From: Patescibacteria group bacterium
GTDB taxonomy: Bacteria; Patescibacteriota; Patescibacteriia; JAXHNJ01
Length of the DNA stretch: 64,000 bases
Assembly (NCBI GenBank): GCA_041649715.1
Contig: JBAZMP010000001.1
Coordinates: 309,287 to 373,286, forward strand
Direction: 5' to 3'
Position numbers and translations under genes: made by a program. The notes under the pieces are model-generated. The model was not told the DNA's origin. It saw only the letters and a list, made by a program, of their open reading frames with translations, and made no database searches. This document shows positions 9,037 through 40,199 of the stretch, piece by piece. How positions within the stretch are numbered: the first letter of the stretch is position 1; every line of letters begins with the position of its first letter.

Positions 9037-10059
9037 ATGGAAACCAAAAATCCAATGAAAACCAAAAAGTGGCTCTGGTACGCCGCAGCGGCTCTTTTAT
9101 GTTTTATCGCCATCGCCGCTTTTGCCTGGAGCGCGGCCAATAAGAGCAAGAATACGAACGCGGTGGCCGTGGCCAATAAAAACGTAAATTCGGCTGCTAA
9201 TTCCAACGCCGCAGCTGGTCAGAACGCCAATAGCAGTCTGGCCAATACCAATACGAACACCAATAATAATACTAATGCCAGCGCCAATACCAACGCTAGC
9301 CAGATCGTGACCGCGGCCAAGACCATTGATGAAACAGCCATTACGCTGGTGCAAAAAAGTACCGGCCACTGCGAAGCCTTGGCTCCTTTGGACTGGTCTT
9401 TTGTCACCAATGCCGAAGGGAGCGGCGCGGATCTTTATTCCGCCGATAAATCCTTGAAAGCCGCCATGCACGCCGGCTGGGGGATCTCGGCCGTCTATAC
9501 CTACATGTATCCGACCGTGGATTCTTTTCTTTCCGCCTGGCTCGGTTATGCTTATACCGGTTCATTTACCAACGGAGGCATTACCTTGGCCGCCGCCCAG
9601 GATGTTTATGAAGGTTTTATCCAGCGGGAATTTACCACCTCAAACGGCCGCAAAGGGGTGGCGATATACAAGACCTACAATTTCGGCGACCCGACCATGT
9701 ACGTGGTTTCCGTTTATATCGCCGATACGGCCAGCGACAAGTGGGAGACCAGCGGCGCTCAGCCATTTTACGTCGCCCTGACCATCCGCTGCGTCACCCA
9801 GCTCCGGCCGGTAACTTCCAGCGTTGATCCTTACACTTCTGATCCGGGCAGTTCTTCTGACAATCCCGAAGTGGGCCTGTCTGACAAATGGACCGAAGCC
9901 ATTATGGGTTATGAAAATGTCTATTCCCCGACCACGGGGGAGCATTACGAAGCGCCCCTTACTTCCGAGTGGCAGGGCGGTCCGCAAGGAACCGGTTATT
10001 ACCGCAGCCTTCCCAATGGCGGTTATGAAAAACTTGAACCGGGGTTTGGAGAGTACTAG
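9037..10059 (+). CDS. Membrane-anchored extracytoplasmic protein of unknown function with an Asn-rich linker
   Basis: 340 aa. A basic N-terminus and one TM helix (WLWYAAAALLCFIAIAAFAW) are followed by an NTN/NAN low-complexity linker and a globular domain. GC content is markedly higher than in the neighbouring genes. Confidence 0.6.
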   Translation: METKNPMKTKKWLWYAAAALLCFIAIAAFAWSAANKSKNTNAVAVANKNVNSAANSNAAAGQNANSSLANTNTNTNNNTNASANTNASQIVTAAKTIDETAITLVQKSTGHCEALAPLDWSFVTNAEGSGADLYSADKSLKAAMHAGWGISAVYTYMYPTVDSFLSAWLGYAYTGSFTNGGITLAAAQDVYEGFIQREFTTSNGRKGVAIYKTYNFGDPTMYVVSVYIADTASDKWETSGAQPFYVALTIRCVTQLRPVTSSVDPYTSDPGSSSDNPEVGLSDKWTEAIMGYENVYSPTTGEHYEAPLTSEWQGGPQGTGYYRSLPNGGYEKLEPGFGEY

Positions 10060-10830
10060 GCAGATAATATTATTGTCATACTGAGGAGCCATGAGATCCT
10101 GAGTCGCATCGAAGGACGAATGGCGTCTCGAAGTATGACCGTTTAGACACATAAAAGCCTGTCTATCCTTCGAGGCTCGCATTGCTCGCACCTCAGGGTG
10201 ACAGTTTTAGTTTTATTTGAAATTCGGTGCATCGGATTTAATCGTCAGGCGGCGAAGCGTTGACGAGCCGCCACTAAGAAAAAGTTAGCAGTAATTTAAG
10301 CTTTCAGCAGGCTGGGGTCTCTGCCTACGGCAGACAGGTGGGGGCTTCATCGCCTTAAATATTTTACAGCGTTTTTTGCTATTAAAAATAACGAAAATTT
10401 AATGGGCGAGGGGGTCCGGGGGAAAAACTGAAAGCGAATGGGCTACGCGGTAAAACCAACCCCCTGTGCTCGCGGTTTTTTTCCCCCGGGGCTTTTGGTT
10501 CTTTTGGCCTCAAAAGAACAAGACAATCAGCCTTGCCCCCTAAAATAAAAATTTTCTAAAGGTAAAAACTCACCCTTCGAGGCTCCCATTCGACGCGGCT
10601 CATGCTCGCACCTCAGGGTGACAGTTTTATTATTTTGGTTTTTGGAGTCTGCCCTGAGTGGCAACGAAGGGGTTACAAAAGTTGAAATACTTCGGCACAG
10701 ACTAAAGATTGAGTAAGGGATAAACAGAAGAAACCGTCTACCCTTCGAGGCTTAGGCGTTGCCTTCGCACCTCAGGGTGACAATTTTAGTTTGCATTTAT
10801 CAACTTTATAAGATTAAAATAAAAGACCCT
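10060..10830. repeat. Non-coding island densely packed with structured repeat modules (families A and B, a TTAGCAG..GCTTTCAGCA module and an AGCCTTGCCCCC..AAAATAAAA module)
   Basis: Family A copy at 10409..10530. Family B arms at 10158..10215, 10571..10640 and 10735..10795. A CTGCCCTGAGTGGCAACGAAGGGGTTACAAAAGTTGAAA module at 10644..10690. No credible ORF. Confidence 0.7.
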
Positions 10831-10879
10831 TTTGTTCAAGCAGTGGGTCTTTAGGCATCTGCTAGCTTGCGGATGGGCG

Positions 10880-11637: not shown

Positions 11638-12531
11638 ATGCAAAAAAAATCCTGGCTTAGCCTCATTTATTTTCTGGTTTTTGGCTTATTAATAATTTTT
11701 ACTTTCTTATTCAAAAGCCGTTCTCTGCTGTATGTAGTAATTCCCATTTTTTTTGGTTTTATCGTGGTTTTGAGTTTGATAAATGTTGGAGGCAAGATGT
11801 TTTCTTTTTCCAAAGGTTTGATGACCATGAGTAAAACCGGGCCGGTTTTTACCTCTAAGGTCTGGTCTTGGCGGGAAGGGGAAACGATTGATTTCGCCGA
11901 TATTTTTCCGGGGTTGAAGGACGTGACCTCATTTTTCAGTGAAATGCCACTGCCGAAAATAAAACCGGAGAGAGTGGCGATTGGAGAAAAAGAGGGGGTG
12001 AATTATAATATTTACCGGCTTAATTTCACGAATATCGTAAAAGTTCCGGCCAGCCGCAAACCGGGCTTCCGGCCGCTGATAATCCACGGGGTTAAAGCGC
12101 CGGGAATGAGCGGGGGCTTGAATTCAAGTGTGAGCCAGAGCTTTAATATTTTGCAGGCCAGATTGACTTTTCCTGGATCTTTCCCCGGCCGTTTGATTAT
12201 CCAAAGAGTTGCCGGGCCGACCTTGGGCCGTGATATTGATCTGGAAAGCGTGGAATTTAACAAAAAAGTTCAGGTCTATACCAATCAGGCCAAAATCGCT
12301 TACCAGATTTTATCCCCGGATTTTATGGACTGGTATTTGAAACTGCCTGATCAGCCGGTTATCGCTTTTGACCAACAGATATGTTATTACACCCTGATCG
12401 GATTCAGTAATAAGGGTGAGGAAGAGATTACCGCCGATATTGAACAATTGATTGACCGCGTCCTGCATTCAGGGGCTTTAACCTTATCCCAAATCCCAAA
12501 TCCTAAATCCAAAACAAATCCCAATATCTAA
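11638..12531 (+). CDS. Hypothetical membrane protein (two N-terminal TM helices plus a globular domain)
   Basis: 297 aa. TM helices are LSLIYFLVFGLLIIFTFLF and VVIPIFFGFIVVLSLINV. The last roughly 12 codons (PNPKSKTNPNI) are encoded by an AAATCC-type repeat. Confidence 0.55.
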   Translation: MQKKSWLSLIYFLVFGLLIIFTFLFKSRSLLYVVIPIFFGFIVVLSLINVGGKMFSFSKGLMTMSKTGPVFTSKVWSWREGETIDFADIFPGLKDVTSFFSEMPLPKIKPERVAIGEKEGVNYNIYRLNFTNIVKVPASRKPGFRPLIIHGVKAPGMSGGLNSSVSQSFNILQARLTFPGSFPGRLIIQRVAGPTLGRDIDLESVEFNKKVQVYTNQAKIAYQILSPDFMDWYLKLPDQPVIAFDQQICYYTLIGFSNKGEEEITADIEQLIDRVLHSGALTLSQIPNPKSKTNPNI

Positions 12532-13175
12532 ATCTGAAATTCGAAACACGGCGGCGTCGTCTCATTTTATGGTGAACAAAAGTAATCAGAAAGCGTGGGG
12601 GCTCCGGGGGTTTTCCTCAGTCCGCAGGGGTTTTAGCGTCTATTTACGCAAATCTTGAACGAATTAAAACCCCCGGGGCTCTTTGGTACTTTCTGGCCCC
12701 AGAAAGTACAAGCAAACAGCCTTGCCCCCAAAAATAAAATTTTCAAAAAAGTAAAACTAACCCTTCGACGCGGCTCAGGGTGACAAGAGGAGAAAGGCGG
12801 CGAAACCAGGGGCGAGCCGCCTAGTGAATAAAAATTAGCAGATACTTTATGCTTTCAGCAAAACAGGGGTCCGGGGGGAATGCTCGACTTTGCGGCTTTT
12901 AGCATTTATATGAGTTTTAAGGGGGCAATCATTCCCCCCGGAACTTTTGCTACTGGAGCCTGCCCTGAGTGGCACCGAAGGGGTTACAAAAGTTGAAAGA
13001 TAGCATCTAAAAAAACAGCTAAAGTAAAACAAAATAATAAACCAAAAAATTACTCTCGCCCGTCTTACGCATAGGTCGATCTTTTTGGCTAATTTAAGCA
13101 GAAATAACAAAAAGACGTTAATTTTGACTAAATCGGCTAAAATCGCTATAATAAAGTTAAATACAGGAGGGGAAA
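12532..13175. repeat. Non-coding island of structured repeat modules (family A copies 3 and 4, a family B fragment, and others)
   Basis: GGGGGCTCCGGGGGTTTTCC...AAAACCCCCGGGGCTC at 12596..12680. GGGGTCCGGGGGGAATG...CATTCCCCCCGGAAC at 12866..12955. CTGCCCTGAGTGGCACCGAAGGGGTTACAAAAGTTGAAA at 12958..13000. Confidence 0.7.
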
Positions 13176-14480
13176 TTGAGTAAACAAATGCCGTATATTT
13201 TGTTATCAGACATCAAGCAATATTTAGGCCAAGAGGTGCTTCTTAAAGGCTGGGTTTTTAACGCCCGGTCTTCCGGAAGCCTCTTTTTTTTACAGCTGCG
13301 GGACGGCTTGGGAGAGGTTCAGGGAGTAGTTTCCAAAAAAGAAGTCAGCCCGGAGGTTTTTGACGCCGCAAAGAAGCTTCAGATAGAATCTTCCGTGGAA
13401 GTCACCGGGATTTTGAAAGAAGAGGCTAAATCGCCCTCGGGTTTTGAAATTCAGGTTAAGGATTTGAAAGTCATTCAGATAGCCTCCGATTACCCGATCG
13501 CCAAAAAAGAGCACGGCCCGGATTTTCTGATGGATAACCGGCATTTGTGGCTTCGTTCTTCCCGCCAGCGGGCGATTTTAAAAATAAGGGATTCGGTTAT
13601 TTGGGCCGCCCGCAAATTTTTTAAAGACAATAATTTTACGCTGACGGATTCGCCGATCCTGACGCCGACCGCCTGCGAAGGGACGACCACGCTTTTTAAA
13701 ACCAAATATTTTGAGGAAGACGCTTATCTCGCGCAGTCCGGACAATTATACATTGAAGCGACGGCCGCCGCCCTGGGCCGGGTTTATGATTTCGGGCCTA
13801 CATTCCGGGCGGAAAAATCCAAGACCCGTCGTCACCTGATGGAATTCTGGATGCTGGACGCGGAAGCGGCTTTTGTGGAGCATGAGGAAAACTTAAAGAT
13901 CCAGGAAAATCTGATCAGTTCCATTGTTAAATATGTTTTGGAAAATAATAAAAAAGAGCTGGCAGTTTTGGAAAGAGACATAAAACCTTTGGAAAAAATT
14001 AAGCCGCCTTTTTACCGCAAGAAATATGAAGAGGTTATTAAGGATCTGCAAAGCAAGGGAAGCCCGATAAAATCCGGGGATGATTTCGGCGGAGACGAGG
14101 AAACCCTGATTTCCAAGGATCTGGACAAACCGGTTTTTGTCACGCATTGGCCGAAAAGTATAAAACCTTTTTACATGAAACAGGATCCCCGAAATCCCAA
14201 ATTAGTTTTGAATGCTGATTGCCTCGCCCCGGAAAGTTTTGGCGAGATCATCGGCGGTTCGCAAAGGGAAGATGATTATGAAACTTTGAAAGCCAACATG
14301 GAAAAAGCGAAAATTCCCATCAAGGATTACCAGTGGTATTTGGATTTGCGCCAATACGGCACTTTTCCGCACTCCGGTTTTGGCTTGGGAATTGAAAGAA
14401 CCGTGGCCTGGATCTGCGGATTAAAGCATATCCGCGAGACGATACCGTTTCCAAGAATGCTGAATAGACTTAGGCCATAG
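13176..14480 (+). CDS. asnS: Asparagine--tRNA ligase
   Basis: 434 aa. Class II motif 2 is FRAEKSKTRRHLMEFWMLDAE and motif 3 is GFGLGIERTVAWICGLKHIRETIPFPR. It has an N-terminal OB anticodon-binding domain and the size typical of AsnRS. A TTG start sits 5 nt after AGGAGG. Confidence 0.85.
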   Translation: MSKQMPYILLSDIKQYLGQEVLLKGWVFNARSSGSLFFLQLRDGLGEVQGVVSKKEVSPEVFDAAKKLQIESSVEVTGILKEEAKSPSGFEIQVKDLKVIQIASDYPIAKKEHGPDFLMDNRHLWLRSSRQRAILKIRDSVIWAARKFFKDNNFTLTDSPILTPTACEGTTTLFKTKYFEEDAYLAQSGQLYIEATAAALGRVYDFGPTFRAEKSKTRRHLMEFWMLDAEAAFVEHEENLKIQENLISSIVKYVLENNKKELAVLERDIKPLEKIKPPFYRKKYEEVIKDLQSKGSPIKSGDDFGGDEETLISKDLDKPVFVTHWPKSIKPFYMKQDPRNPKLVLNADCLAPESFGEIIGGSQREDDYETLKANMEKAKIPIKDYQWYLDLRQYGTFPHSGFGLGIERTVAWICGLKHIRETIPFPRMLNRLRP

Positions 14481-14499: not shown

Positions 14500-14672
14500 T
14501 TTAAATCCTAAATTCTAAATCCGAAAATCTAAACAAATCTTAAATTCTAAATTCCAAATTCAAAACCGGTTTGGAACATTGGAAAATTAGGGCTTCGAAT
14601 TTGTTTCGGATTTAGGATTTCGCGCTTCGAATTTATCTGAATTTTGGTGCTTGTAATTTGGAATTTTGAAGA
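14500..14672. repeat. Long AT-rich palindromic hairpin of the AAATYC/GAATTT family (probable bidirectional terminator)
   Basis: AAATCCTAAATTCTAAATCCGAAAATCT...TTTCGGATTTAGGATTT. The two arms are near-perfect reverse complements across more than 60 nt. Confidence 0.65.
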
Positions 14673-14699: not shown

Positions 14700-15125
14700 A
14701 TGCCTGAAACAATTTTCAACCCCCCTGGTTATCAGAAAAATAATAAATCAAAGAAAATTGTGATCATTGTTCTTGTCATTCTTGTTTTGTTAGTCGCGGC
14801 TTTCTTTTTCGGCTATTTTTACCAGAAAAATAAGTGGAGTGTAAGCGACATATTTACTTTTGAATCAGATTGCGCCAAAGAAGGCGGGAGTATTTCCGTT
14901 ACTGGTAAGTTCAAGAAGTGCTGCGGGTCTTTAAAGCCAGTCCGCCCATATAGGATGATAGATACGGCGCAAGACACAAAACCACTTCTATTAACAGTTG
15001 ATTTCTATAAGGGAGACATTGCTTGTACCGGTCTTCCTGGCGGTATGGATTGCGTCCGTTGCGGGAATGGCAAATGCGGTAAAGGCGAGAATATCTGTAA
15101 TTGCCCGCAGGATTGCAAGGAATGA
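14700..15125 (+). CDS. Signal-anchored Cys-rich extracytoplasmic small protein
   Basis: 141 aa. A TM anchor ending in GYFY is followed by a domain with 11 Cys (CCGSLKP, CTGLPGGMDCVRCGNGKCGKGENICNCPQDC). Confidence 0.6.
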   Translation: MPETIFNPPGYQKNNKSKKIVIIVLVILVLLVAAFFFGYFYQKNKWSVSDIFTFESDCAKEGGSISVTGKFKKCCGSLKPVRPYRMIDTAQDTKPLLLTVDFYKGDIACTGLPGGMDCVRCGNGKCGKGENICNCPQDCKE

Positions 15126-15146
15126 GAATATTAGTATTAAAATAAT

Positions 15147-16421
15147 ATGGAAGATCAAACTCAACCCAATCCGACAAAGGAAAAACGCCCTCAAAAAACC
15201 AGCTTGCTGGCCATTCTTATTTTGATCGCCGTCCTGCTCGGGGCGATCATTATCGCCGGCTACTTCTATTTTGTTCCGGCGGACAGGGAGAATAAAAACA
15301 CCAATCAGGTGGCGGTCAGTTCCAATTCTAATGAAAATCAGAACACCAGCCAGCTTTTAGGCGGAGATGAAGATGAGCACGGCTGCAAAGGTTCGGCCGG
15401 CTATTCTTGGTGCGAAGCTAAGCAGAAATGCTTGAGAATTTGGGAGGAGGTCTGCCCAAGTAGCTTTAATAATTTGGGAAATAGCGCCCCCACTTTATCG
15501 GGCGAATTCTGGATGATTCAAAATTATACCGCTAAATTAAAGAGTATTAATATTGCCAATAAAGAGATTAAAGAATGGACGGAATATCCAAATCAACCTC
15601 AAAATAGCGAAAATGAAATACCGGCGCCAAAAGGTAATCACATGTTATATAATAAAAAAGATACTGACGGAAATTGGGCCTTGTATGTTTCTGAGACCAA
15701 TGGTAAAAATGAAAAACTTATTACGACTGGCGGGGTGTGTACAGATGGTCCGTGTTCCAAAGAAAATACTTATGGAGTGGGCAAAATTTCTCCGGATGGG
15801 CAATATGTTTCATTCAGAAAAGGAGAAAATAGCATTGTTAAAAATCTTGTCACTGATAAAGAAACCATTCTGCCCTTAAAACTGACTCTCGCTCCTGCGG
15901 CTTTTACTCCTCTTCAGACATATGTTTACACAGTTTCACAAAAGGAAAATGAGGTTAATTATTACCTGGAAATCGGCAAGTTATCAGATACTGAATTTCG
16001 CTTGATTAATCCCGCACTTTCCCTTTTTTATGCCATTGATTTTTCGCCGGACGAAAATTATTTTGCCATTAGTGGTAATCAGGGAGTTTGCATCTATGAG
16101 ACAAAGACCGGCCAGTTATTAGACAAAAAAGAGAGTAATGATATGTCAGGAATTTACGAAATAGTTTGGCTATCAAACAATAAGCTTATTTTGCGGACTC
16201 ATAATTCAGTTTTGCATCAATTTACTTTAATCGATCATAAAATTACCGAAGAAATAATATACAAAGCCGAATATTTAGACTCCCTTTTTAGAATAGATGA
16301 CAATAATGTTCTTTTGCGATCCGGCGGTAATGATTTGATAGTGATTAATACGACTACCGGAACTATAACCGAAGTTTATTCAAGTGACGATTATTTCGCT
16401 ATTTTAGGGTCAAAGGAATAA
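15147..16421 (+). CDS. Signal-anchored secreted protein with a Cys-rich module and TolB-like beta-propeller repeats
   Basis: 424 aa. The N-terminal leader KEKRPQKTSLLAILILIAVLLGAIIIAGYFYFVPADRENKN is shared with the next gene. Repeats such as SPDGQYVSF and FSPDENYFAISG are propeller-like. Confidence 0.6.
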   Translation: MEDQTQPNPTKEKRPQKTSLLAILILIAVLLGAIIIAGYFYFVPADRENKNTNQVAVSSNSNENQNTSQLLGGDEDEHGCKGSAGYSWCEAKQKCLRIWEEVCPSSFNNLGNSAPTLSGEFWMIQNYTAKLKSINIANKEIKEWTEYPNQPQNSENEIPAPKGNHMLYNKKDTDGNWALYVSETNGKNEKLITTGGVCTDGPCSKENTYGVGKISPDGQYVSFRKGENSIVKNLVTDKETILPLKLTLAPAAFTPLQTYVYTVSQKENEVNYYLEIGKLSDTEFRLINPALSLFYAIDFSPDENYFAISGNQGVCIYETKTGQLLDKKESNDMSGIYEIVWLSNNKLILRTHNSVLHQFTLIDHKITEEIIYKAEYLDSLFRIDDNNVLLRSGGNDLIVINTTTGTITEVYSSDDYFAILGSKE

Positions 16422-16447
16422 TTATATTAAATAGTCGAAAAAAATAA

Positions 16448-17311
16448 ATGCCAAACCAACCTCAAATTAATCCGCCAAAGGAAAAACGCCCTCAAAAAAC
16501 CAGCTTGCTGGCCATTCTTATTTTGGTCGCCGTTCTGCTCGGCGCGATCATTGTCGCCGGCTATTTCTATTTTGTTCCGGCGGACAGGGAAAACAAAAAT
16601 GCCAGCCAGGCGGCGGAAAACTCTAATATTAATGTAAATTTAAATAATAATGAAAATCAGAATAATAATTCAAATAATAGCGCTAGCGCAAATGAGGTAA
16701 AGACAGCCATTGGCTTGGTCAGCTTAAGCTGTGCCACGAAATCTGACTGTGTGTTAATTGGTAAAGAGAAAGATTATGATTGTTGCGGCATTGGTAGTTG
16801 CCTCGACTATTCTCAGGGGATTTGGGTGGCGGTGAATAATCGTTCTTTCCAAGAAATTATCGAGCGACATAATTGTAATATAGCCTGCCCTGATAATATG
16901 GAGGTATGTTTTTATAATGATTATTATGAAGTAGGATGCCAGAATAACCGCTGTCAAACGATAAAAGTAACTAAGACTACTGAAAATTCCGATTCAAATG
17001 AAATAAGTGTAATCGGCGGTCAGGTGAGTTTGAGTTGTTCTTCAAAGCAAGATTGTCGATTGATTGACAAAGAAAAGGACTATACCGTTTGTTGTTCTCA
17101 ATATTCTCAACCGGACTATACCAAAGGGATTTGGGTAGCGGTCAATAGTAGTTCTTTCCAAAAAATTGTTGGCTCTAACAGCGCCTGCAAATTGAAAGTC
17201 TGCCCGGATAATATGGAAGTATATTATAGCGGTAATGTTCCGTATGAAGTGGCATGCCAGAATAACCGCTGTCAAACGATAAAAATAAACAGGACTATTG
17301 TTGAGTATTAA
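16448..17311 (+). CDS. Signal-anchored secreted protein with a tandem duplicated 8-Cys domain
   Basis: 287 aa. The leader is about 92 percent identical at the DNA level to that of 15147..16421. There are two roughly 90-aa repeats (VSLSC..DC.LI.KEKDY..CC......GIWVAVN..SFQ.I......C....CPDNMEV.Y......EV.CQNNRCQTIK). Confidence 0.65.
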   Translation: MPNQPQINPPKEKRPQKTSLLAILILVAVLLGAIIVAGYFYFVPADRENKNASQAAENSNINVNLNNNENQNNNSNNSASANEVKTAIGLVSLSCATKSDCVLIGKEKDYDCCGIGSCLDYSQGIWVAVNNRSFQEIIERHNCNIACPDNMEVCFYNDYYEVGCQNNRCQTIKVTKTTENSDSNEISVIGGQVSLSCSSKQDCRLIDKEKDYTVCCSQYSQPDYTKGIWVAVNSSSFQKIVGSNSACKLKVCPDNMEVYYSGNVPYEVACQNNRCQTIKINRTIVEY

Positions 17312-17317
17312 AGAATA

Positions 17318-17368
17318 TGGACCGAATATTCACTTCGCAAACCTTAGACAAGGTAGACAAAAAATAAA
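17318..17368 (+). pseudogene. Remnant duplicate of the aspS 5' end (encodes MDRIFTSQTLDKVDKK then a stop)
   Basis: About 50 of 55 nt identical to 18660..18714, the true aspS start. Confidence 0.7.
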
Positions 17369-17376
17369 TAAAATTT

Positions 17377-18648
17377 ATGTTAAATCAAATTCAACAAAAT
17401 CAGCCTAACCAAAAGAAGCCGAAAAAAAGTCTCGCTCCAATATTAACTCTCGGTTTCATCGCCGCCCTTTTAATAGCGGCCATGTCTTTTGGGTACGTGA
17501 AATACATCAAGAATGGGAACGAGAATGCGAACAATTCAGTGGCCTGCACCATGGAGGCCAAGCTCTGTTCGGACGGCTCGGCCGTTGGCCGCGTGCCGCC
17601 TACTTGCGAGTTCGCGCCCTGCCCCAATGAAAATGGGAATTCAAATGTTAATTTAAATGCCAATGTCTCGGTCAATGCCAATGAAAATTTGAATACCAAC
17701 ACAGCGGTCAGCGAAGTAGAAAAATGGCAGAATTATCAACTGGAATACGATAAATTTGGCAAGCTCACTTCTTTTTCCTATAAGTATACCTATAATCAAC
17801 AGACAAAGATTGTTACTCCATTTGATATCGCATTATATCGCGGCTCGGTGACTCCTTATGGTGTTATTTTTTTTAAAGTCGGAGAAATGAGGCAAGCCAC
17901 GGGTACGAATATCGGAGAATTTAGCTATGAATACGGTATCAATCCGGATTTTCAATTGTTTAATTATCAGACCCAGTCTTTTAAATCATTGCCGGCTTTT
18001 TCTTTGAAACTGGCCGGAAGCCAATTTGAAAGAATTTACGCCCTGCATTTTTCCGCGACCGAACCAAAGATATTGGTTGAAATCGGAGAATACGATACCA
18101 GTAGCTCTCATTTCGAGCCGGGACTGGTAGAAAGCCAGCCGGTGAAGACCCACGGGGTGGTCTATGACGTCGTCACCAACCAGTATTTGACCGGCGACCC
18201 CTTGACGATCTATTTAGATCTGATCGGCCAAACCACGACATTGTGGAACGGTATGTCCTGGGATAGTCTGCACCAGATCGCGGTGGCGGCGCCGGGCGGG
18301 GAAGGATGTGGCGCTTATAATTCTTTGACAGTTGTCTACCTGGATCAAGAAAGAGCCGTGACCGTCGGCGGTGAAGGCAGTTTCAATTTTAAAAAAGAAA
18401 TATGCAACCCAAGTAACGGGGTAAGCCCTGATCGTAAATGGTTTGTTTTAGATGGATGCAATAACGAAAATAAATTCGACGTCAATCTCTTTAATTACGC
18501 CAGTTTTCCTGAGCCAATTCTAAAAAAACTCTCCATCTCGGTTTCGAATAATAATGTTTGTCATGTTTATGTGAAAGAATGGAATATCAGTCAGACCTAC
18601 CCGATCATTACTTTTAATGACGGCACGATTATTAATTTTAACGAATAA
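17377..18648 (+). CDS. Signal-anchored secreted protein of unknown function (Asn-rich linker)
   Basis: 423 aa. An N-terminal TM anchor is followed by NGNSNVNLNANVSVNANENLNTN and a large globular domain. The gene is flanked by the aspS-start direct repeats. Confidence 0.6.
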   Translation: MLNQIQQNQPNQKKPKKSLAPILTLGFIAALLIAAMSFGYVKYIKNGNENANNSVACTMEAKLCSDGSAVGRVPPTCEFAPCPNENGNSNVNLNANVSVNANENLNTNTAVSEVEKWQNYQLEYDKFGKLTSFSYKYTYNQQTKIVTPFDIALYRGSVTPYGVIFFKVGEMRQATGTNIGEFSYEYGINPDFQLFNYQTQSFKSLPAFSLKLAGSQFERIYALHFSATEPKILVEIGEYDTSSSHFEPGLVESQPVKTHGVVYDVVTNQYLTGDPLTIYLDLIGQTTTLWNGMSWDSLHQIAVAAPGGEGCGAYNSLTVVYLDQERAVTVGGEGSFNFKKEICNPSNGVSPDRKWFVLDGCNNENKFDVNLFNYASFPEPILKKLSISVSNNNVCHVYVKEWNISQTYPIITFNDGTIINFNE

Positions 18649-28739: not shown

Positions 28740-29339
28740 ATGGCATCAAATAAAGAAGGAGGAAATCCCATGAAAAAATATATAATATTAGGCTTAATCG
28801 TTATCGTGGTGGTAGCCGGATTGCTGGCCTTGTTTTGGTTTTATCCGGGGATTTTCCCTTTTGGGCAGAACAAAAATTCCGCCTCCCAGAATACCAATTT
28901 AACCGCGAACACTAATGCGTCGGTCAATCAAAACACGAACACGCCAGCCGTAAATCTTAACATCAGTCTCAAGACGGGGAGCATTCAGGTAAATAAGGCC
29001 GTCACCTACAGAAACATTGAATTTAAGGTCTTGACCGCTGACAAGTCAAGCGTATTTGAAAAGATGGAGGCAGGCAGCGGCCAGACGCTGGTCGGACTGT
29101 ATCTGGAAAGGATAACCGGAGGCAACATTGTTGACATCTCTTCCTGGCTGAGAACAGAGATCAAGCTTAAAAACAGCCAAGGCCGGGAGTTTTCGCTTTT
29201 CGGCTATAATTTGCCCGGGGGAAGCGCCCCTTCCTATTCCGCCAGTTATCTGGTCTTTGAAACCGGCCAGAAAGATAGCGGCTTTTCCCTGAATTTCGGC
29301 ACGGGCGAGGCCTTTCAGACTATCGATTTAGGTTTTTAA
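28740..29339 (+). CDS. Membrane-anchored protein of unknown function with an Asn-rich linker
   Basis: 199 aa. A TM anchor is followed by NTNLTANTNASVNQNTNTPAVNLN and a beta-rich domain. Confidence 0.55.
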   Translation: MASNKEGGNPMKKYIILGLIVIVVVAGLLALFWFYPGIFPFGQNKNSASQNTNLTANTNASVNQNTNTPAVNLNISLKTGSIQVNKAVTYRNIEFKVLTADKSSVFEKMEAGSGQTLVGLYLERITGGNIVDISSWLRTEIKLKNSQGREFSLFGYNLPGGSAPSYSASYLVFETGQKDSGFSLNFGTGEAFQTIDLGF

Positions 29340-30527: not shown

Positions 30528-30531
30528 AATT

Positions 30532-32424
30532 ATGGAGGAAGGGGTAAAAAATATAAAGAGAGCAAAAGGGGCTTTTCGTTTTTTTATCTTGGCCGGCCTA
30601 GTGATTGTTTTGCCGCTTTTTGTTTTTATTTTTATCAATCAGCCGCTAAAACCCACCCTGGTCGTGATCAAGGAGGAAAGCAGGTTGAAAGTTGATTCAC
30701 CGCTGGAGATCCAGTTTGACTGGCCGGTCGCCCGCCAAGTAAATATCACCATTGAACCGGCGGTAACGGGCGAGGTGGCTTATAAGAATATGATCATCGG
30801 CCAGCATTTTTCGCGGACCGTGGTTTTTACCCCGGAGCTTAACTTTTGGCCGGACACCACCTACCAAGTGAGGGTTTCAAATGTGAAATCCGTTTTGCCG
30901 AGCTTGTTGCCGGCCCGGGAATATGTCTATACTTTTACCACGGAAAGTGTGCCGAAAATCAAATCCCTGACCCCGGAAGTTGTTGGGGAAATAAGGGCAG
31001 ACCAAGAATTCAAAATAACCCTGGATAAAAAACCGGCCAACCTGGCAGAATACGAATATCGTTTTTTGCCGGCTGTTGATTATGACACTCTGTTAAGCGA
31101 AGAGGGAAAAACCGTCACTTTAAAGCCTAAAAGCTTGCTTTCCCAGGGCCAGACTTATCAGTTATCTGTTTGGCAGAAAAAAATCCGGAATTTTTATCAG
31201 AAAAATGAGGCGGGTTTCCGGGCCGAGCCGGAAAGTATTTGGACCGGCAATTTTGCCGTCCGGGAGGCTCCCTTTCTTTCGGGCTTTTCCCCGAAAGGAG
31301 AAAATGTCGGCTTAAACGCCGAGATCACCGCGGTTTTTAACGAGCCGGTGGAAACTGCTTCTTTCAAAGAGAGCCTTTCCATCACGCCGGCTTTATCAGG
31401 CGATTGGCGGACCGAAGATCAAAAAACCTTTGTTTTGAAAGAAGCGACACTCGCCAAAGACACCGACTATAAAGTTTTGATCCGCCGGGGCTTAAAGACT
31501 CTCAAGGGCGGATATTTCACCGAAGACGCCACGCATACTTTTAAAACGATCGGCCCGGTGGAAATCGCTCGTTTTTCTCCGGCTGATGGCGCCGCCGGCG
31601 TTTCCGTCAGTCATTCTTTTTCCGTCACTTTTAACCAGGCAGTGGATAAAACATCGGCCCAAAGTCATTTTTCCCTTGAGCCGGCGGCTGCCGGAGATTT
31701 TTTGTGGTCAGGGGAGACATTGACTTTTAAGCCAAAGGCTTCCTTAGCTTTTAATACGACCTATCATCTCACGATATCCAAGGGAGTGAAAAGCTTGTCG
31801 GGTTTTGATTCGGAAGAAGACTATAAAACAAACTTTACCACCGAGCTTTCCCTGACGAAATTGGCCGTTCCCTTCCACCGGCAGGAGCATAATTTAAGCT
31901 GCGAGACCGCCACCCTGGTCATGGCCTTGGCCTACCGAGGGGTGAGCGTTTCGGAGGCCGCGATTATAGATTATATCGGCTTTGACCCCACGCCGAAATC
32001 AGGGGGCGTCTGGGGTAATCCTAACGTCGCTTTTGTCGGCGACATTGACGGCCACCAGCCTTCGACCGGCTACGGAGTCTATTGGGATCCGATCACCAGA
32101 GCCGCCGATCAATACCGGAGCGCTTATGATTTTACCGGCTGGAATATCTCCGATTTGACCGCGGAGATCAAGAAAGGCAATCCGGTGATCGTCTGGGGCA
32201 CGGCCGGTTCCGGAGCCAGGATTGACTGGAAGACGCCCGCCGGCGGCAACGTGGTGGCCGTCAGCGGCGAGCACACCCGGGTGGTTGTCGGTTTTATCGG
32301 TTCGGCCGAAAATCCGAGCAAAATCATTACTTTAGACCCGCTTTCCGGGGAAAAGTATTTTACCTTGAGCAGTTTTCTTTGGAACTGGGGGCTTTTGGGC
32401 CGAAGCGGCGTGGTGGTCGAATAG
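30532..32424 (+). CDS. Membrane-anchored multidomain protein with a C-terminal YvpB/C39-like cysteine peptidase domain
   Basis: 630 aa. An N-terminal TM helix is followed by repeated beta-sandwich-like segments. The C-terminal domain LAVPFHRQEHNLSCETATLVMALAYRGVSVSE ... GEHTRVVVGF matches the Peptidase_C39_2 (YvpB) pattern VP...Q....CE..S..M. Confidence 0.6.
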   Translation: MEEGVKNIKRAKGAFRFFILAGLVIVLPLFVFIFINQPLKPTLVVIKEESRLKVDSPLEIQFDWPVARQVNITIEPAVTGEVAYKNMIIGQHFSRTVVFTPELNFWPDTTYQVRVSNVKSVLPSLLPAREYVYTFTTESVPKIKSLTPEVVGEIRADQEFKITLDKKPANLAEYEYRFLPAVDYDTLLSEEGKTVTLKPKSLLSQGQTYQLSVWQKKIRNFYQKNEAGFRAEPESIWTGNFAVREAPFLSGFSPKGENVGLNAEITAVFNEPVETASFKESLSITPALSGDWRTEDQKTFVLKEATLAKDTDYKVLIRRGLKTLKGGYFTEDATHTFKTIGPVEIARFSPADGAAGVSVSHSFSVTFNQAVDKTSAQSHFSLEPAAAGDFLWSGETLTFKPKASLAFNTTYHLTISKGVKSLSGFDSEEDYKTNFTTELSLTKLAVPFHRQEHNLSCETATLVMALAYRGVSVSEAAIIDYIGFDPTPKSGGVWGNPNVAFVGDIDGHQPSTGYGVYWDPITRAADQYRSAYDFTGWNISDLTAEIKKGNPVIVWGTAGSGARIDWKTPAGGNVVAVSGEHTRVVVGFIGSAENPSKIITLDPLSGEKYFTLSSFLWNWGLLGRSGVVVE

Positions 32425-33426: not shown

Positions 33427-34230
33427 ATGAAGAAGAAAATAATAATATTGTTATTAATCCTAACACTCGCCTGTCTTTTTTATTTCGGCCGGCACCAGAT
33501 CGCGGAATTATGGGAGAATTTCGTGGCCGAACCCCTGCCAGAACCGACTCCTCTGGAAAATATCAATACAAGGATAAATCAAAATACTAACGCAGCGGTC
33601 AATCAGAATCAAAATATTAACTTGTCGGTGAATAATAACCTTAACGCCGCGCCGCCCGTTTTACCGTCTGAATTCAATCTAGTCGTGCCTTTTACCACTC
33701 AGTCGCCGTTTGCGGAATGGACCGAGCAGGATAACGAATCCTGCGAAGAAGCGGCGATTTTGACCGTCCATTATTACTGGCAAAAAAAGACTTTTACCAA
33801 ACAAATTGCCAAAGAGGAGCTGCAAAAGATTGTGGATTATGAAATGGCGCATCTGGGTTTTTACAAAGATACGGATGCGGAAGAAACGGCCCAGTTGGCC
33901 AAGGATATGTGGGGCTACAAGCGCGTGGACGTGGTTTGGGATCCGACGCTTGAGGATATAAAACAGCAGGTCTATGCCGGCCGACCGGTGATCTTGCCGA
34001 CCGCGGGAAGAGAGTTAAAAAACCCGAATTTCAAAACGCCGGGGCCCATATACCACATGGTGGTGGTGCGCGGCTGGACCAAGGGTATGATCATTACCAA
34101 TGATCCGGGCACGCGCAAAGGTGAAAATTACCAATATTCCCCTGATATTTTAATGAATGCGGTGCATGACTGGAACGACGGGGATATAATGAATGGAAAA
34201 AAGGCGATGATTGTGATTTATCCGAATTAA
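33427..34230 (+). CDS. Signal-anchored YvpB/C39-like peptidase-domain protein
   Basis: 267 aa. A TM anchor and Asn-rich linker are followed by LVVPFTTQSPFAEWTEQDNESCEEAAILTVHYYWQ ... YHMVVVRGW, which matches the Cys and His regions. Confidence 0.55.
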   Translation: MKKKIIILLLILTLACLFYFGRHQIAELWENFVAEPLPEPTPLENINTRINQNTNAAVNQNQNINLSVNNNLNAAPPVLPSEFNLVVPFTTQSPFAEWTEQDNESCEEAAILTVHYYWQKKTFTKQIAKEELQKIVDYEMAHLGFYKDTDAEETAQLAKDMWGYKRVDVVWDPTLEDIKQQVYAGRPVILPTAGRELKNPNFKTPGPIYHMVVVRGWTKGMIITNDPGTRKGENYQYSPDILMNAVHDWNDGDIMNGKKAMIVIYPN

Positions 34231-34724: not shown

Positions 34725-34862
34725 TGAAATAAATTCCAATATCCAAATTCAAAACACGCCCCAGAGGCGTTTTTTTGTATTAAAAAAATGGATCGTTAGA
34801 GTTTTGGATTTCGAATTTGGAATTTGGGTATTGTTTGGAACTTGGAATTTGTGATTTGGTAT
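34725..34862. repeat. AAATYC-family palindromic hairpin with a nested canonical terminator (ACGCCCCAGAGGCGTTTTTTT)
   Basis: ATTCCAATATCCAAATTCAAAAC ... GTTTTGGATTTCGAATTTGGAATTTGG. The inner GC hairpin plus T-tract lies at 34752..34776. Confidence 0.6.
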
Positions 34863-35002
34863 TTAGCGGCTAAATAGCGGCACAGTCAAGAATAGGGGAT
34901 AACCTTCCCTTTAAAATTTGACTCTCAAAAAGGGCGATGATATAATGTGGATAAGTATGTAATTGCATACTTTTCATACTTAATAAAATCAAGCAAAAAA
35001 CC

Positions 35003-37670: not shown

Positions 37671-37671
37671 A

Positions 37672-37845
37672 CAAACTAAATTCTAAATCCGAAATCCTAA
37701 ATTCTAAACAAATCATAATATCTAAATCACAAATTCGAAACCCCATTAGAAATTCTATTTTTAAATAGGAAACCGGTTTGGGACATTGGAAAATTATTGC
37801 TTCGAATTTGTTTAGGATTTAGAAATTGAGATTTGGAATTTTATC
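37672..37845. repeat. AAATYC-family long palindromic hairpin
   Basis: AAATTCTAAATCCGAAATCCTAAATTCTAAACAAATC ... GATTTGTTTAGGATTTAGAAATT. The arms are complementary. Confidence 0.65.
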
Positions 37846-37928
37846 CTTGATATTAATTAGAAAAAAGGGGGAGATAATGGAATTTTGCTCTTTTTTTTGG
37901 TATACTTAAAAGGAAAGGAATAAAAATT

Positions 37929-40199
37929 ATGGATAATGAATCAATTAAGCCCAAGCCTCCGGTTAAAAAGGCCAATTTTACCATTTGGATCGTTTTGGGA
38001 GCGATCATAGTCATTGTTTTAGCTTTTGGCGGTTATTATCTGTACAGCCAAAGAGCCGGCAACAAAAATACCAATACAGTCAGCCAAACGAATATCAATG
38101 CCAATATCAACGAGAGCGAGAATCTGAATAATAATCTGAACTTGAATGTCAATCAGGCGGTTAACGGCAATACCAATACCTCGGTGGCCAAAACCGGCTG
38201 GCAGCTTATTACCTATCAGCGGGCGGACCACGGTTTCACTTTCCAGCTACCGGAAAATTGGACGACCTGGGGCGGCTGGAACGGCTTTCGCGAAACAGAC
38301 CCTTTGGCTGGCGCTCATTTGGCGGATAATGACAAATATCTGGACTTGACTCTCAATTATTTTGTAAATACCGAGCCGTCTTTTGAAACCTGGCTGGCGA
38401 AACGCAAAGAAGCCATAAGCAAGGACGAAACGATTATCAATGAACAGATAAAAACGATTAACGGCTCTGAGGCGGCCGTAATAGACACCCAATACGATTA
38501 TGTCATTAGCGGAGGCGGAATATATTTAAAAGTCTACGCTTTCGTACCGCGCGGCGATAAGATTTATAAACTTGAAGCAAGTGGGAAAAAGGATTTTTTT
38601 GAAAGCCAAAGCCAAGGTGTTGACGGAATAATTGAGTCTTTTAAATTTATCGACGTAAAACCAATCGCAGAGATCAATACAATTTCTTACGGGCAGAAGA
38701 TATCCTCAAACCTTGCCTATAACCTTGAAGTTGATTGGCTGGCCGAACCCTTGAGTATCAATATGAAAGAACCTTCCCTGTTAAAATCCGATAGCGGCGT
38801 TATGAACCGGGATTACTATCAAGTCGGAACGATCACTAACGGCCGCTATAAAGACAAGAAGCTGCTCGATATTTTTGAAACACCGGATGGGCCGGCTTTT
38901 TATCCTGACTTGTATCGGGTGGTATACGACGAGGAGAGTCGGACATTCACGTATCTGGAAAAACTTTCGGCCACCCTTTCCGATTACGTCAAGGAGAATT
39001 TTGCTTACGACACGGGTTCCACAATCAGCTCTTTGTCTGGAATGCCCGCCGAAATTTCCATTCCTGATTCACAGATAAAACTGGCGGCCGAAGCTTATTC
39101 TTTAAACGGACGCTTTTCCTCCTATGAAAATTTAGAGCTATTATTTACGGATACGACAGCGGGAAAAGTATATTTTGACTCGGTGAAAAAATGTTTTCTG
39201 ATCGAGACACCAGACAGTTTGGTCAAGCTCTATTATCTTAAACTGGACTTTGTCAGCAATTTCACGCCGCCGGAATATTCTTCATCCACGATTTCTCTCA
39301 TCCCAGCGGTTACTTGGACGGATGGCAGCAAAGTGACGAAAGAATACACGTACAGTGAGCCCACCGGCTGTGGGTCAAGCTATTGTCAGTCATTGTTTAC
39401 CGCCGAAGAACTCGGCGGGGCTGACGTGCTCCAAGTCGCCGGCAAGACATCGGCCGGAGATAACGTCTATGAATATAAGGATAAAAACGCCCAATTGCTG
39501 CAGGATACCTACAAAGAATACGGAGTGCCATATCAGGGCGAAAAGGTCGGTTACGAGCAATTTATAAGCGGTCACCCGGTTTTTTACTGGCCGGACCCGT
39601 TTGGCCGATATTTGCGGTTTAAGAAGTCTGAATTTTTGCCCATGGTTGAGTGTGCAAAACCCGTGATCTATCTTTATCCGGAAAAAACGGAAAAAATAAG
39701 GGTGGAAGTGGCGCCGAACGGCGGTTTCTCTGAAACGATCCCGACCTATCCAGATGACGGTTGGCTGGTAACGGCTTCTCCGGCCGGCGAGCTATTAGCC
39801 GAAGATGGCGGAATATACCCATATCTTTTCTGGGAAGGTTTTGGCTTCAACTACAAAATTCCGGACAGAGGTTTTATCGTGGCTAAAAAAGATGTCGGTG
39901 TTTTCCTCTCGGAAAAATTAATAGCCTTGGGCTTGAATGAAAAAGAGGTCGGCGAGTTCAAGGATTTCTGGCTGCCCAAGATGTCAGAAAAACCCTATTA
40001 TTTTATCACTTTCGTCGATCAGAATGTCTTTAACGAACTTGCGCCCTTGAAAGTGACGCCGCAACCCGACCGGATCATCCGGGTTTTTATGGATTATAAA
40101 CCATTGGACGCCCCGATAAGCGTGGAGCCTCTGGAGATTTCGACGCCGGAAAGATCCGGTTTCACCGTGGTGGAGTGGGGCGGTGCCCTGCACCGATAA
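37929..40199 (+). CDS. Large membrane-anchored extracytoplasmic protein of unknown function
   Basis: 756 aa. A TM anchor ending in GGYYLY is followed by an NTNTVSQTNINANINESENLNNNLNLNVN linker and no recognisable catalytic motif. Confidence 0.6.
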   Translation: MDNESIKPKPPVKKANFTIWIVLGAIIVIVLAFGGYYLYSQRAGNKNTNTVSQTNINANINESENLNNNLNLNVNQAVNGNTNTSVAKTGWQLITYQRADHGFTFQLPENWTTWGGWNGFRETDPLAGAHLADNDKYLDLTLNYFVNTEPSFETWLAKRKEAISKDETIINEQIKTINGSEAAVIDTQYDYVISGGGIYLKVYAFVPRGDKIYKLEASGKKDFFESQSQGVDGIIESFKFIDVKPIAEINTISYGQKISSNLAYNLEVDWLAEPLSINMKEPSLLKSDSGVMNRDYYQVGTITNGRYKDKKLLDIFETPDGPAFYPDLYRVVYDEESRTFTYLEKLSATLSDYVKENFAYDTGSTISSLSGMPAEISIPDSQIKLAAEAYSLNGRFSSYENLELLFTDTTAGKVYFDSVKKCFLIETPDSLVKLYYLKLDFVSNFTPPEYSSSTISLIPAVTWTDGSKVTKEYTYSEPTGCGSSYCQSLFTAEELGGADVLQVAGKTSAGDNVYEYKDKNAQLLQDTYKEYGVPYQGEKVGYEQFISGHPVFYWPDPFGRYLRFKKSEFLPMVECAKPVIYLYPEKTEKIRVEVAPNGGFSETIPTYPDDGWLVTASPAGELLAEDGGIYPYLFWEGFGFNYKIPDRGFIVAKKDVGVFLSEKLIALGLNEKEVGEFKDFWLPKMSEKPYYFITFVDQNVFNELAPLKVTPQPDRIIRVFMDYKPLDAPISVEPLEISTPERSGFTVVEWGGALHR

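Follow-up and report, generated by a model that had tools for sequence, protein, structure and literature searches.

A probable extracytoplasmic stalk with asparagine at every second position behind the N-terminal membrane anchors of a Patescibacteria lineage

Introduction

The ClfA/Sdr adhesins of staphylococci carry a glycosylated stalk of Ser-Asp dipeptide repeats (SDR, the "R region"), which projects the functional domain and is protected by this posttranslational glycosylation (PMC3794999). In monoderm bacteria, membrane-anchored surface proteins thread disordered ectodomains through the wall in an entropy-driven manner, and Halladin et al. tabulated disordered regions of at least 250 amino acids (aa) (10.1101/2020.11.24.396366). 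The Asn repeats of Plasmodium are Asn-rich low-complexity regions in an AT-rich eukaryote (PMC3749963). Here we describe another low-complexity element, a tract of 24 to 68 residues with Asn at every second position (Asn-x-Asn) that follows the N-terminal membrane anchor of nine proteins encoded in a 64,000-nucleotide stretch of a Patescibacteria group bacterium genome (GenBank assembly GCA_041649715.1, contig JBAZMP010000001.1, positions 309,287 to 373,286 of the forward strand). We call this stretch the window, number it from its first letter, and refer to genes and their proteins by their lower coordinate.

A low-entropy stalk behind an N-terminal transmembrane (TM) helix is of a known kind, and its Asn-x form is apparently undescribed; a full-text literature search, which had most subscription journals outside it and gives absence of evidence only, found no description of an anchored Asn-x-Asn tract. 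Pro/Thr/Ser-rich linkers occur in cellulases as PT linkers and in archaeal S-layer glycoproteins as Thr/Ser stalks, Gram-positive lipoproteins have disordered N-terminal tethers, and the glycoside hydrolases of anaerobic fungi have Asn-rich linkers. Like the PT and Thr/Ser stalks and the lipoprotein tethers, the tract would be a hydrophilic low-complexity spacer on exported proteins with a lineage-typical composition; unlike the PT and Thr/Ser stalks, it is defined by Asn, has a strict period of 2, and nearly lacks Pro and Gly. The NANP repeats of the circumsporozoite protein likewise place Asn at every second position of a surface protein. However, these Asn-rich tracts of AT-rich eukaryotes follow extreme AT content and occur in all compartments, whereas here the GC content is 45 to 48%, Asn makes up 4.9% of residues overall, the tract is confined to segments predicted to be extracytoplasmic, and a relative with 59% GC keeps it.

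The tract resembles the SDR stalk in being a period-2, low-complexity, extracytoplasmic sequence between a cell attachment element and a functional domain (PMC3794999). The SDR stalk, for which the coding DNA repeats are nearly perfect, is built of Ser and Asp, acidic, hundreds of residues long, and located C-terminally beside an LPXTG wall anchor, whereas the tract described here is neutral and short, sits behind an N-terminal membrane anchor, and is not a clean DNA repeat. The proteins of Halladin et al. have in common with ours a membrane anchor, N-terminal ones included, followed by a disordered extracytoplasmic region, whose function there depends on length and not on sequence. Their mechanism requires long regions and exposes the disordered chain itself; our tracts are short, show position-specific conservation of Asn, and bear folded domains whose size exceeds that of wall pores. 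In composition, strict period, short length, and position-specific Asn conservation, the tract differs from known stalks.

Results

Nine proteins carry an Asn-x-Asn tract behind an N-terminal anchor

The DNA examined was about 84 kb, comprising the window and 10 kb of the same genome on each side. We screened open reading frames (ORFs) for hydrophobic helices and Asn density and confirmed the TM and tract coordinates by translation. Nine window proteins followed one plan, an apparently uncleaved N-terminal signal-anchor and then a tract of which 30% of the residues are Asn; about one gene in eight encodes an N-terminally helix-anchored protein with such a short every-second-Asn tether. The tract is a real, statistically robust, and clade-limited sequence feature, seen directly in its composition, its periodicity, its restriction to proteins with an N-terminal TM helix, its conservation pattern, and its distribution among lineages.

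The members are as follows, on the + strand except for the last. The 340-aa protein at 9037-10059 has a TM core at 9070-9138 and a tract at 9139-9300 (NKSKNTNAVAVANKNVNSAANSNAAAGQNANSSLANTNTNTNNNTNASANTNAS), and its globular domain matched no family. The gene at 15147-16421 (424 aa; TM, 15198-15275; tract, 15276-15359) encodes a small Cys knot and a weakly WD40/propeller-like domain beyond the tract. Its neighbor at 16448-17311 (287 aa; TM, 16499-16576; tract, 16577-16696) has 13 Asn in 20 residues of tract and two copies of a Cys-rich domain behind it. These copies correspond to an internal duplication in the gene (16805-16982 versus 17114-17300, 74% DNA identity) and have the pattern SLSC..KSDC..KEKDY..CC...IWVAVN...CQNNRCQTIK. 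In the 423-aa protein at 17377-18648 (TM, 17440-17499), the linker at 17509-17712 has a 4-Cys mini-domain between two Asn tracts, first a short one and then NENGNSNVNLNANVSVNANENLNTN. The protein at 28030-28674 has a 54-aa Pro/Glu/Ser-rich cytoplasmic tail ahead of its TM helix (28207-28272, aa 60 to 81, ending in GGYILY), a short tract at 28276-28347 (NENENISNISNQAGNKN), and a C-terminal TSP3-like calcium-binding repeat (DTDGDSYGD...NGGYNPLGPGKL). The gene at 28740-29339 (TM, 28779-28865; tract, 28863-28967), which the public gene call starts at 28770 to give 189 aa, encodes a beta-rich domain of unknown family. A C39_2 peptidase of the papain fold is encoded at 33427-34230; its TM helix (33439-33489) is followed by a juxtamembrane helix and Asn tract at 33490-33660, of which the part with alternating Asn is at about 33556-33648. 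The largest member (37929-40199, 756 aa) has a TM helix at 37977-38048 ending in GGYYLY and a tract at 38049-38192, and its domain opens with a GWxxTY-type, weakly PsbP-like sequence, a start typical of PsbP_2-like domains. The last gene, at 57215-57502 (-), encodes an anchor (TM, 57371-57451) and a tract (57218-57370) and no globular domain; its start is most likely Met28 of the ORF, which gives 95 aa, the same as the public gene call.

This membership differs from that in a preliminary description made from the sequence of the window, which placed ten proteins with a common anchor and linker between 9037 and 40199. Eight of the ten have the pattern (9037, 15147, 16448, 17377, 28740, 33427, 37929, and 57215). 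The last of these lies outside that interval and lacks the globular domain that the linker was said to precede, and the protein at 28030 had been overlooked. The protein at 14700-15125 (+) has the anchor only: its TM helix (14757-14822) ends in FGYFY and leads directly into a 10-Cys domain, with at most 3 Asn per 20 residues. The gene at 20539-22032 (+) encodes a DUF2330 protein (E = 2e-32) with three C-terminal TM helices. Its N terminus (20539-20601) has a hydrophobic core of only 14 residues and looks like a cleavable signal peptide ending in KTSA/DG, and its Asn tract (KKTNTNTNNNLNTN; 21169-21246, aa 211 to 236) is internal, between extracytoplasmic parts. The tract therefore also serves as an interdomain linker, away from an N-terminal anchor. 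We rejected 42899-43336 as a member, in which a stretch with 6 Asn in 20 residues contains one Asn-x-Asn pair and lies upstream of the start of the orthologue. The two strings that the preliminary description quoted are present, NTNTNTNNNTNASANTNAS in the 9037 protein and NLNANVSVNANENLNTN in the 17377 protein. The helix ending it gave as GGY.LY or GYFY is found in 14700, 15147, 16448, 17377, 28030, and 37929 as a loose aromatic cluster and not as a strict motif.

Asn alternates with a restricted set of residues

The nine tracts total 410 aa and contain 30% Asn, 12.7% Ala, 9.3% Ser, and 7.1% Thr, with 4.9% Lys plus Arg, 6.6% Asp plus Glu (Asp alone, 1.5%), 4.9% Gln, 3.9% Pro, 2.9% Gly, and 1.5% aromatic residues. 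The probability of finding Asn at a given distance from another Asn was 0.59, 0.48, and 0.52 at lags of 2, 4, and 6 and 0.13, 0.13, and 0.16 at lags of 1, 3, and 5. We counted 71 Asn-x-Asn pairs, compared with 34.5 ± 4.1 in 5,000 composition-preserving shuffles (maximum, 49; z = 8.9). The x residues were T, L, K, A, N, E, Q, V, S, I, and G, with T the commonest and K, E, Q, or N at 24 of the 71 positions; Asp, Arg, Pro, aromatic residues, Cys, His, and Met never occurred at x in the nine tracts. A detector that requires at least four such pairs within 24 aa was positive for 8 of 62 window ORFs, compared with 15 of 6,200 shuffles of their own composition.

An N-K-N recurs at the opening of the tract, right behind the helix, in 9037, 15147, 16448, 28740, 37929, and relatives, and no other conserved tract sequence was found among the members. 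Tracts start 5 residues before to 42 residues after the end of the helix, mostly 0 to 40 codons after it, and would span 8 to 23 nm if fully extended. In comparison with Q/N-rich prion-like or amyloid domains, the tracts combine 30% Asn with only 4.9% Gln, and they are short, predicted to be extracytoplasmic, and modeled as coil by AlphaFold2.

At the DNA level, Tandem Repeats Finder (TRF) reported short and mostly weak signals of period 6, 9, or 18 in four tracts (9242-9293, 16625-16669, 21211-21233, and 28306-28326), with matches of 65 to 82% over short stretches and of 100% across just 2.3 copies at 28306-28326. AAT accounts for 74% of Asn codons in the tracts versus 65% elsewhere, and the codons at the x positions are diverse. 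At Asn residues retained between orthologues, the numbers of AAT/AAC codons that stayed the same and that changed were 5:5, 5:6, 4:5, and 7:5, a synonymous turnover of about 50%, so the DNA repeat itself is not what is preserved. These weak TRF signals, diverse x codons, and AAT/AAC turnover led us to reject a clean microsatellite or tandem DNA repeat. At a related locus (L007) with a GC content of 0.59 and a preference for AAC, one protein has 13 Asn in 27 residues, encoded by 7 AAT and 6 AAC codons, and a neighboring paralogue lacks the tract. A genome-wide bias toward Asn or AT was likewise rejected; the window has a GC content of 0.45 to 0.48 past its first 8 kb (0.43 to 0.48 by another figure) and 4.9% Asn overall, TM-less ORFs have no tract, and the GC-rich relative has one.

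The tract is restricted to proteins with predicted membrane insertion

We compared the anchors of 11 proteins, namely, the nine members, 14700, and 20539. Ten have uncharged cores of 17 to 29 aa, the exception being the 14-aa core of 20539. The 15-aa flanks, summed over the 11 proteins, contain 37 Lys plus Arg and 10 Asp plus Glu residues on the N side (net, +27) and 18 and 16 on the C side (net, +2). These values bear out the proposal in the preliminary description that the N termini behave as export or anchor signals. Regular-expression scans of the 11 proteins found no lipobox ([LVI][ASTVI][GAS]C), no class III prepilin motif (G/[FMILV]-[TS]-[LIV]-x-E), and no LPxTG in the last 60 residues. 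Signs of signal peptidase cleavage were a possible AWS/A site in 9037 and the cleavable-looking N terminus of 20539. The mature parts are rich in Cys (up to 18), and the cargo domains belong to extracellular types, with Cys-rich knots, DUF2330, and a C39/papain-like peptidase that resembles wall isopeptidases; in homologues, PsbP-like and TSP3-like domains occur as well. Because of the uncharged cores, the flank charges, the Cys-rich mature parts, and these domains, a predicted N-in, C-out (type II) topology is well supported.

The tract occurred in 7 of 20 window ORFs with a single N-terminal helix, in none of 32 without a helix, and in 1 of 10 with multiple TM helices (20539) (Fisher's exact test, P = 5.8e-4). 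When the 10-kb flanks and four relatives were pooled with the window, it occurred in 13 of 52 N-terminal-TM ORFs versus 0 of 86 TM-less ORFs (P = 1.1e-6). The preliminary description had allowed that Asn-rich stretches might prove equally common in cytoplasmic proteins, which these counts do not bear out.

Searches of Pfam, NCBIfam, and PDB sequences with the cargo of 9037, 15147, 17377, 28740, and 37929 gave nothing beyond weak WD40 and PsbP_2 hints, and we disregarded a PDB match of TM helix and tract to 6ncl "P14" as compositional. AlphaFold2 modeled the C39 protein (33427) with an overall predicted local distance difference test score (pLDDT) of 93.7; the structures nearest to this model are those of a Bacillus C39-like peptidase, the phytochelatin synthase-like enzyme Alr0975, and the pseudomurein endoisopeptidase PeiR. 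Its tract scored 71, 55, and 80 over residues 51 to 80 (55 to 71 across the tract), with coil at residues 59 to 82. The 28740-family tract (residues 29 to 62) was modeled as coil with a pLDDT of 22 to 28, and its end, AVNLNISL, as the first strand of the domain; with a pLDDT of 55, this model was too poor for a fold search. No hairpins or solenoid turns were predicted in the tracts of the 28740-family and C39 models.

Asn is retained while the rest of the tract drifts

In the five members of the 28740 family, 93% of tract Asn residues were retained, compared with 30% of x residues and 57% of domain residues, and eight Asn residues were invariant. Alignment bias is small in this family, because its alignment has a single indel, 2 residues long. 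The corresponding values were 65%, 17%, and 52% in the 37929 family and 51%, 18%, and 77% in the 30 closest C39 homologues, conservation values that are upper bounds, since the alignment of low-complexity sequence favors matches of Asn to Asn. Tracts of orthologues differ in length through indels of 2, 3, and 8 residues. We inspected 120 of 845 hits of the C39_2 family. The distance from helix to domain was about 50 residues (38 to 59) in the two closest similarity bins, and the share with at least three Asn-x-Asn pairs was, in order of falling similarity, 20/24, 24/30, 14/25, and 4/30; distant members have Glu/Pro/Lys-rich or Ser/Pro-rich linkers at the same site. The 37929 orthologue P0004 has a Cys mini-domain between two Asn tracts, as in 17377. 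The position of the linker is thus ancestral in the families and the Asn "dialect" belongs to one clade, in which Asn is kept while the rest drifts.

We surveyed 80 dnaK loci of GTDB species, about 30 of them from Patescibacteria (several under automatic labels that are obviously wrong) and the rest Desulfobacterota, Chloroflexota, and Nitrospirota. The detector threshold was reached at two loci only, by L007 and by one multi-TM ORF in L067, and we rejected the tract as a general trait of Patescibacteria. Low-entropy stalks behind N-terminal TM helices were found in 11 of 138 ORFs of other bacteria, and these are rich in Pro, Ala, Lys, Thr, and Glu. Absence from about 78 of the 80 loci, many of them patescibacterial, and presence in close relatives agree with the lineage specificity claimed in the preliminary description. 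The relatives keep the gene order of the window, and one is labeled Candidatus Kerfeldbacteria.

A profile of seven anchor-tracts from the window found 54 representatives (E < 1e-3) among 1.84 billion proteins, and 45 of the 53 fetched had at least three Asn-x-Asn pairs within 60 aa past the TM helix. Their cargo is unrelated (PsbP_2-like domains, TSP3 repeats, Cys knots, zinc ribbon/TM proteins, and a kinase), and the few named hits come from Patescibacteria or ACD aquifer bins. Since such a search selects for the pattern, it shows that the pattern exists and that its cargo is diverse, not how frequent it is. In ten profile hits with a long tail before the TM helix, the tail is rich in Pro, Thr, Ala, and Gln with 5.3% Asn, a value that the search does not select for, whereas the segment after the helix has 24% Asn, a value that it does select for. 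The 28030 protein shows the same contrast between an Asn-poor tail before the helix and an Asn tract after it. Four hits from the representative library (P0138, P0155, P0164, and P0169) have an N-terminal zinc ribbon, one TM helix, and an Asn-x-Asn tract; the tract may thus occur outside Patescibacteria too.

The anchor and the start of the tract have also been copied between genes. In the adjacent genes 15147 and 16448, the 5' cassettes at 15139-15338 and 16441-16639 are 85% identical over 200 nucleotides (nt), with a core of about 93% identity over 130 nt that encodes the basic N terminus, the helix, and "PADRENKN", and nothing downstream is common to the two. Two genes of the relative L084 (13055 and 16230), on either side of its Memo gene, encode first 78 residues that are 64% identical, the first 37 nearly so, ahead of unrelated domains. 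These near-identical cassettes before unrelated domains show that the anchor and tract start were copied onto different cargo. The term "module" used in the preliminary description thus applies literally to these two pairs, and the other members are alike in composition only.

Interpretation of the tract

Taken together, these results make it probable that the tract serves, behind a type II anchor, as an uncharged and disordered stalk on the extracytoplasmic side that is specific to its lineage. Its topology, disorder, and spacer function are what we infer from the features above. The short Lys/Arg-rich N terminus and the long uncharged helix would act as an uncleaved signal-anchor for the Sec/signal recognition particle (SRP) pathway. 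In the next 24 to 68 residues, Asn alternates with T, L, A, V, I, S, Q, E, or K, Pro, Gly, and aromatic residues are nearly absent, and there is hardly any net charge; this segment would form a hydrophilic stalk that is intrinsically disordered or extended. Such a stalk could keep an extracytoplasmic enzyme or binding domain as much as 8 to 23 nm off the membrane, in the wall or the zone beneath an S-layer, and could also string extracytoplasmic domains like beads. Purifying selection would act on the identity of the Asn residues, while the x residues and the exact length would drift through insertions and deletions. The most likely role is that of a tether, a local version of the ordinary stalk of surface proteins. 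The spacer role suggested in the preliminary description fits the position of the tract and its low-confidence coil in AlphaFold2.

Several points weigh against this reading. Disorder is not uniform, since AlphaFold2 predicts a moderate-confidence helix at residues 44 to 58 of the C39 protein. For a flexible linker, the tract is atypical in having many beta-branched and aliphatic residues at x and little Pro or Gly. Other anchored proteins of the same genome lack the tract (the Big_5/C39 protein at 30454 and, in the flanks, an HtrA-like protease and an anti-sigma-like protein). The figures for Asn retention in the 37929 and C39 families are inflated to some degree by the matching of Asn to Asn in alignment. 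Lastly, a pure spacer should need no fixed Asn, and the conservation of Asn with a strict period of 2 points to a more specific role, for example in a modification, a binding face, or a strand. By itself, the stalk model leaves the position-specific conservation of Asn unexplained.

Glycosylation would supply such an explanation and is compatible with the stalk model. According to this alternative, the Asn or the interspersed Thr/Ser residues are modified after export by a transferase that depends on lipid-linked sugars, and the glycans stiffen the stalk and protect it from proteases. Archaeal surface proteins carry glycosylated Thr/Ser stalks, and the staphylococcal SD-repeat stalk is a bacterial precedent (PMC3794999). 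The exclusively extracytoplasmic position predicted for the tract and the conservation of Asn next to drifting neighbors are as expected. Thr and Ser make up 16% of tract residues, Thr is the commonest x residue, and each tract has at least one N-X-S/T sequon. Genes for GtrA-like, GT2 (polyprenyl-phosphate-sugar synthase-like), epimerase, and UDP-glucose dehydrogenase proteins lie just beyond the window, and a GT4 gene adjoins 28740. However, the 22 sequons, which contain 18% of the tract Asn, are not enriched over composition (19.5 ± 3.4 in 5,000 shuffles; P = 0.27), and the genes of the 84 kb gave no hit to the STT3/PglB/AglB or PMT/GT-C families. To our knowledge, no oligosaccharyltransferase uses an N-x-N acceptor. 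We therefore regard glycosylation of the stalk as possible but unlikely.

The tract might instead be functionless, with slippage on AAY-NNN hexanucleotides inflating unconstrained linkers and the Asn pattern tolerated outside the cell. Length variation among orthologues by indels of 2, 3, and 8 residues, the weak period-6 and -18 TRF signals in four tracts, the slight overuse of AAT, and the quite different linkers with which distant orthologues manage are all consistent with neutral expansion of this kind. It does not account for the retention of 93% of Asn against 30% of x residues in a nearly gap-free alignment, for the synonymous change of about half of the retained Asn codons, or for the persistence of the tract in a 59%-GC genome that prefers AAC. 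Slippage would also ignore membrane topology, whereas no TM-less ORF has a tract and cytoplasmic disordered tails are not Asn rich. We think neutral expansion improbable.

We give similarly little credence to an Asn ladder, in which the alternating Asn residues would form one face of an extended beta-strand that binds a wall glycan of the cell or its host, other copies of the tract, or, through strand addition, a component of an S-layer or pilus. In that case, the tract would act in attachment or assembly and would not be a passive tether. The strict period of 2 and the conserved Asn fit a ladder, as does the choice of x, which favors T, L, V, I, and A and shuns Pro, Gly, and aromatic residues in the pattern of a two-faced strand; the modeled strand at the end of the 28740 tract fits as well. 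In contrast, AlphaFold2 gave very-low-confidence coil and no hairpins, tract lengths differ widely among paralogues and orthologues, and no partner is identifiable. With K, E, Q, or N at 24 of 71 x positions, there is also no consistent hydrophobic face.

Another explanation, to which we would assign a low probability, is that one clade of Patescibacteria has an undescribed extracytoplasmic process directed at Asn, for which the tract is the acceptor or the element recognized. Candidates would be an N-glycosylation without the N-X-S/T requirement or a covalent or noncovalent attachment to the wall or S-layer. Such a process would explain together the conservation of Asn, its absence from the cytoplasm, and its limitation to one clade.

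It is very unlikely that anchor and tract together are a dedicated sorting signal for a surface assembly machine such as a pilus, an S-layer, or a sortase-like system, as the preliminary description had considered. The recurrent N-K-N behind the helix, the aromatic G-x-Y/F-x-Y cluster at its end, the reuse of identical anchor cassettes on different cargo, and the type IV secretion system (T4SS)-type pilin and coupling protein genes in the window would suit a signal. However, the scans found no lipobox, class III pilin motif, or LPXTG, and NKN is the one conserved sequence; tracts vary freely in sequence and length, they are also internal (20539, aa 211 to 236; the second tract of 17377; P0004), no processing enzyme gene adjoins any member, and orthologues of other lineages have acidic or Pro-rich linkers instead.

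We dismiss as scarcely credible a translational pause, in which the run of Asn codons slows the ribosome after synthesis of the anchor so that SRP captures the emerging helix: most tracts start about where the helix leaves the exit tunnel, one tRNA reads both Asn codons, and asnS adjoins a cluster of four such genes, but the internal tract of 20539 is far from any preceding helix, the tract start varies from -5 to +42 residues past the helix, other anchored proteins of the genome have no tract, distant orthologues use non-Asn linkers, and the asnS adjacency stems from an insertion into a conserved gene pair (see below).

Patescibacteria live attached to other cells, and the greater part of their surface proteins is "dark matter"; here, most of the cargo domains match no family. 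An N-terminal helix followed by Asn-x-Asn marks a sizeable group of predicted extracytoplasmic proteins in one clade and could serve as a signature that defines the surface proteome of that clade from metagenomes. The position-specific conservation of Asn, which a passive spacer would not predict, recommends the tracts for studies of protein modification or of attachment to the envelope. Even as nothing more than a spacer, the tract would be a clear natural case of a linker whose composition is set by lineage and compartment and not by protein family.

Gene neighborhood and other features of the window

Other genes of the window include asnS, aspS, and those for triosephosphate isomerase (TIM), class II aldolase, GAPDH, ScpAB, HrcA-GrpE-DnaK-DnaJ, a T4SS-type pilin, and a VirD4-like coupling protein; RNA genes are limited to one tRNA, with no further Rfam family. 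The first 8,000 nt form a low-GC block (GC, 0.32 to 0.34 versus 0.43 to 0.48 elsewhere) that continues upstream (L087) and stops immediately before 9037, the first anchor-stalk gene. The genes assigned to it encode a Bro-N protein (119-973), a 790-aa N6_Mtase/Eco57I/HSDR_N fusion (1214-3586), and an AbiEii toxin (8280-9023), and it holds several ORFs without a family. Its low GC content and these Bro-N, N6-methylase/Eco57I-type, and AbiEii genes make the first 8 kb look acquired, and the block is probably a defense or mobile island.

The genes asnS (13176-14480) and aspS (18660-20039) enclose the four anchor genes at 14700-18648. In the relative L089, asnS directly adjoins aspS; the four genes are therefore an insertion between them, and we rejected a functional link of asnS to the cluster. 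The rearrangement may have left a footprint upstream of 17377, where a copy of the start of aspS (53 nt, 90.6% identical) is found at 17317-17368.

An intergenic element of about 140 nt is repeated in the window. The two full copies (14502-14640 and 37674-37830) sit directly upstream of the anchor genes 14700 and 37929, and partial copies are found at 7191-7250, 12486-12548, 20064-20101, 34803-34864, and 43377-43462. Its left arm consists of AAATYCN heptads, its right arm of complementary GGATTT/GAATTT heptads, and its core (AAACCGGTTTGGRACATTGGAAAATTA) is nearly identical between copies; folding of the element gives a long hairpin (-33.4 kcal/mol; z = -3.3). It could be regulatory or resemble a miniature inverted-repeat transposable element or a repetitive extragenic palindrome. 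Behind gene 9037, a 770-nt noncoding gap (10060-10832), for which Rfam gave no match, contains three copies of a unit of about 60 nt (CCTTCGAGGCT...GCTCGCACCTCAGGGTGACAGTTTTAGTTTT). Pieces of this gap recur between genes at 7275-7527 and 12670-12998 with 73 to 96% identity.

Downstream of dnaK, a DUF3467 gene is present in two copies about 2.4 kb apart (45744-46037 and 48453-48743), which are 78.6% identical over 299 nt (45718-46015 and 48426-48721). The C39_2 peptidase genes at 30454-32424 and 33427-34230 lie on either side of a CorA gene, an arrangement kept in L083, L084, and L085; the former encodes two Big_5 domains and a C39_2 domain behind an N-terminal helix anchor, with no Asn tract. 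The Memo-like protein at 40183-41067 (LSGC) and a 292-aa protein at 58567-59445 (-) (NAGC) have lipobox-like N termini and no Asn tract and are probable lipoproteins; the relative L088 has an Lsp-type Peptidase_A8 gene. Immediately downstream of the 95-aa anchor and tract protein at 57215 (-), the gene at 56261-57208 (-) encodes 315 aa that correspond to the first AAA module (D1) of ClpB/ClpA (positions 147 to 411 of the ClpB model). It has an N-terminal TM helix of its own and is missing the second module, and L007, the GC-rich relative, keeps a TM-anchored AAA fragment at 20357-21346 (-) of its locus. Such a membrane-tethered half-Clp ATPase is unusual.

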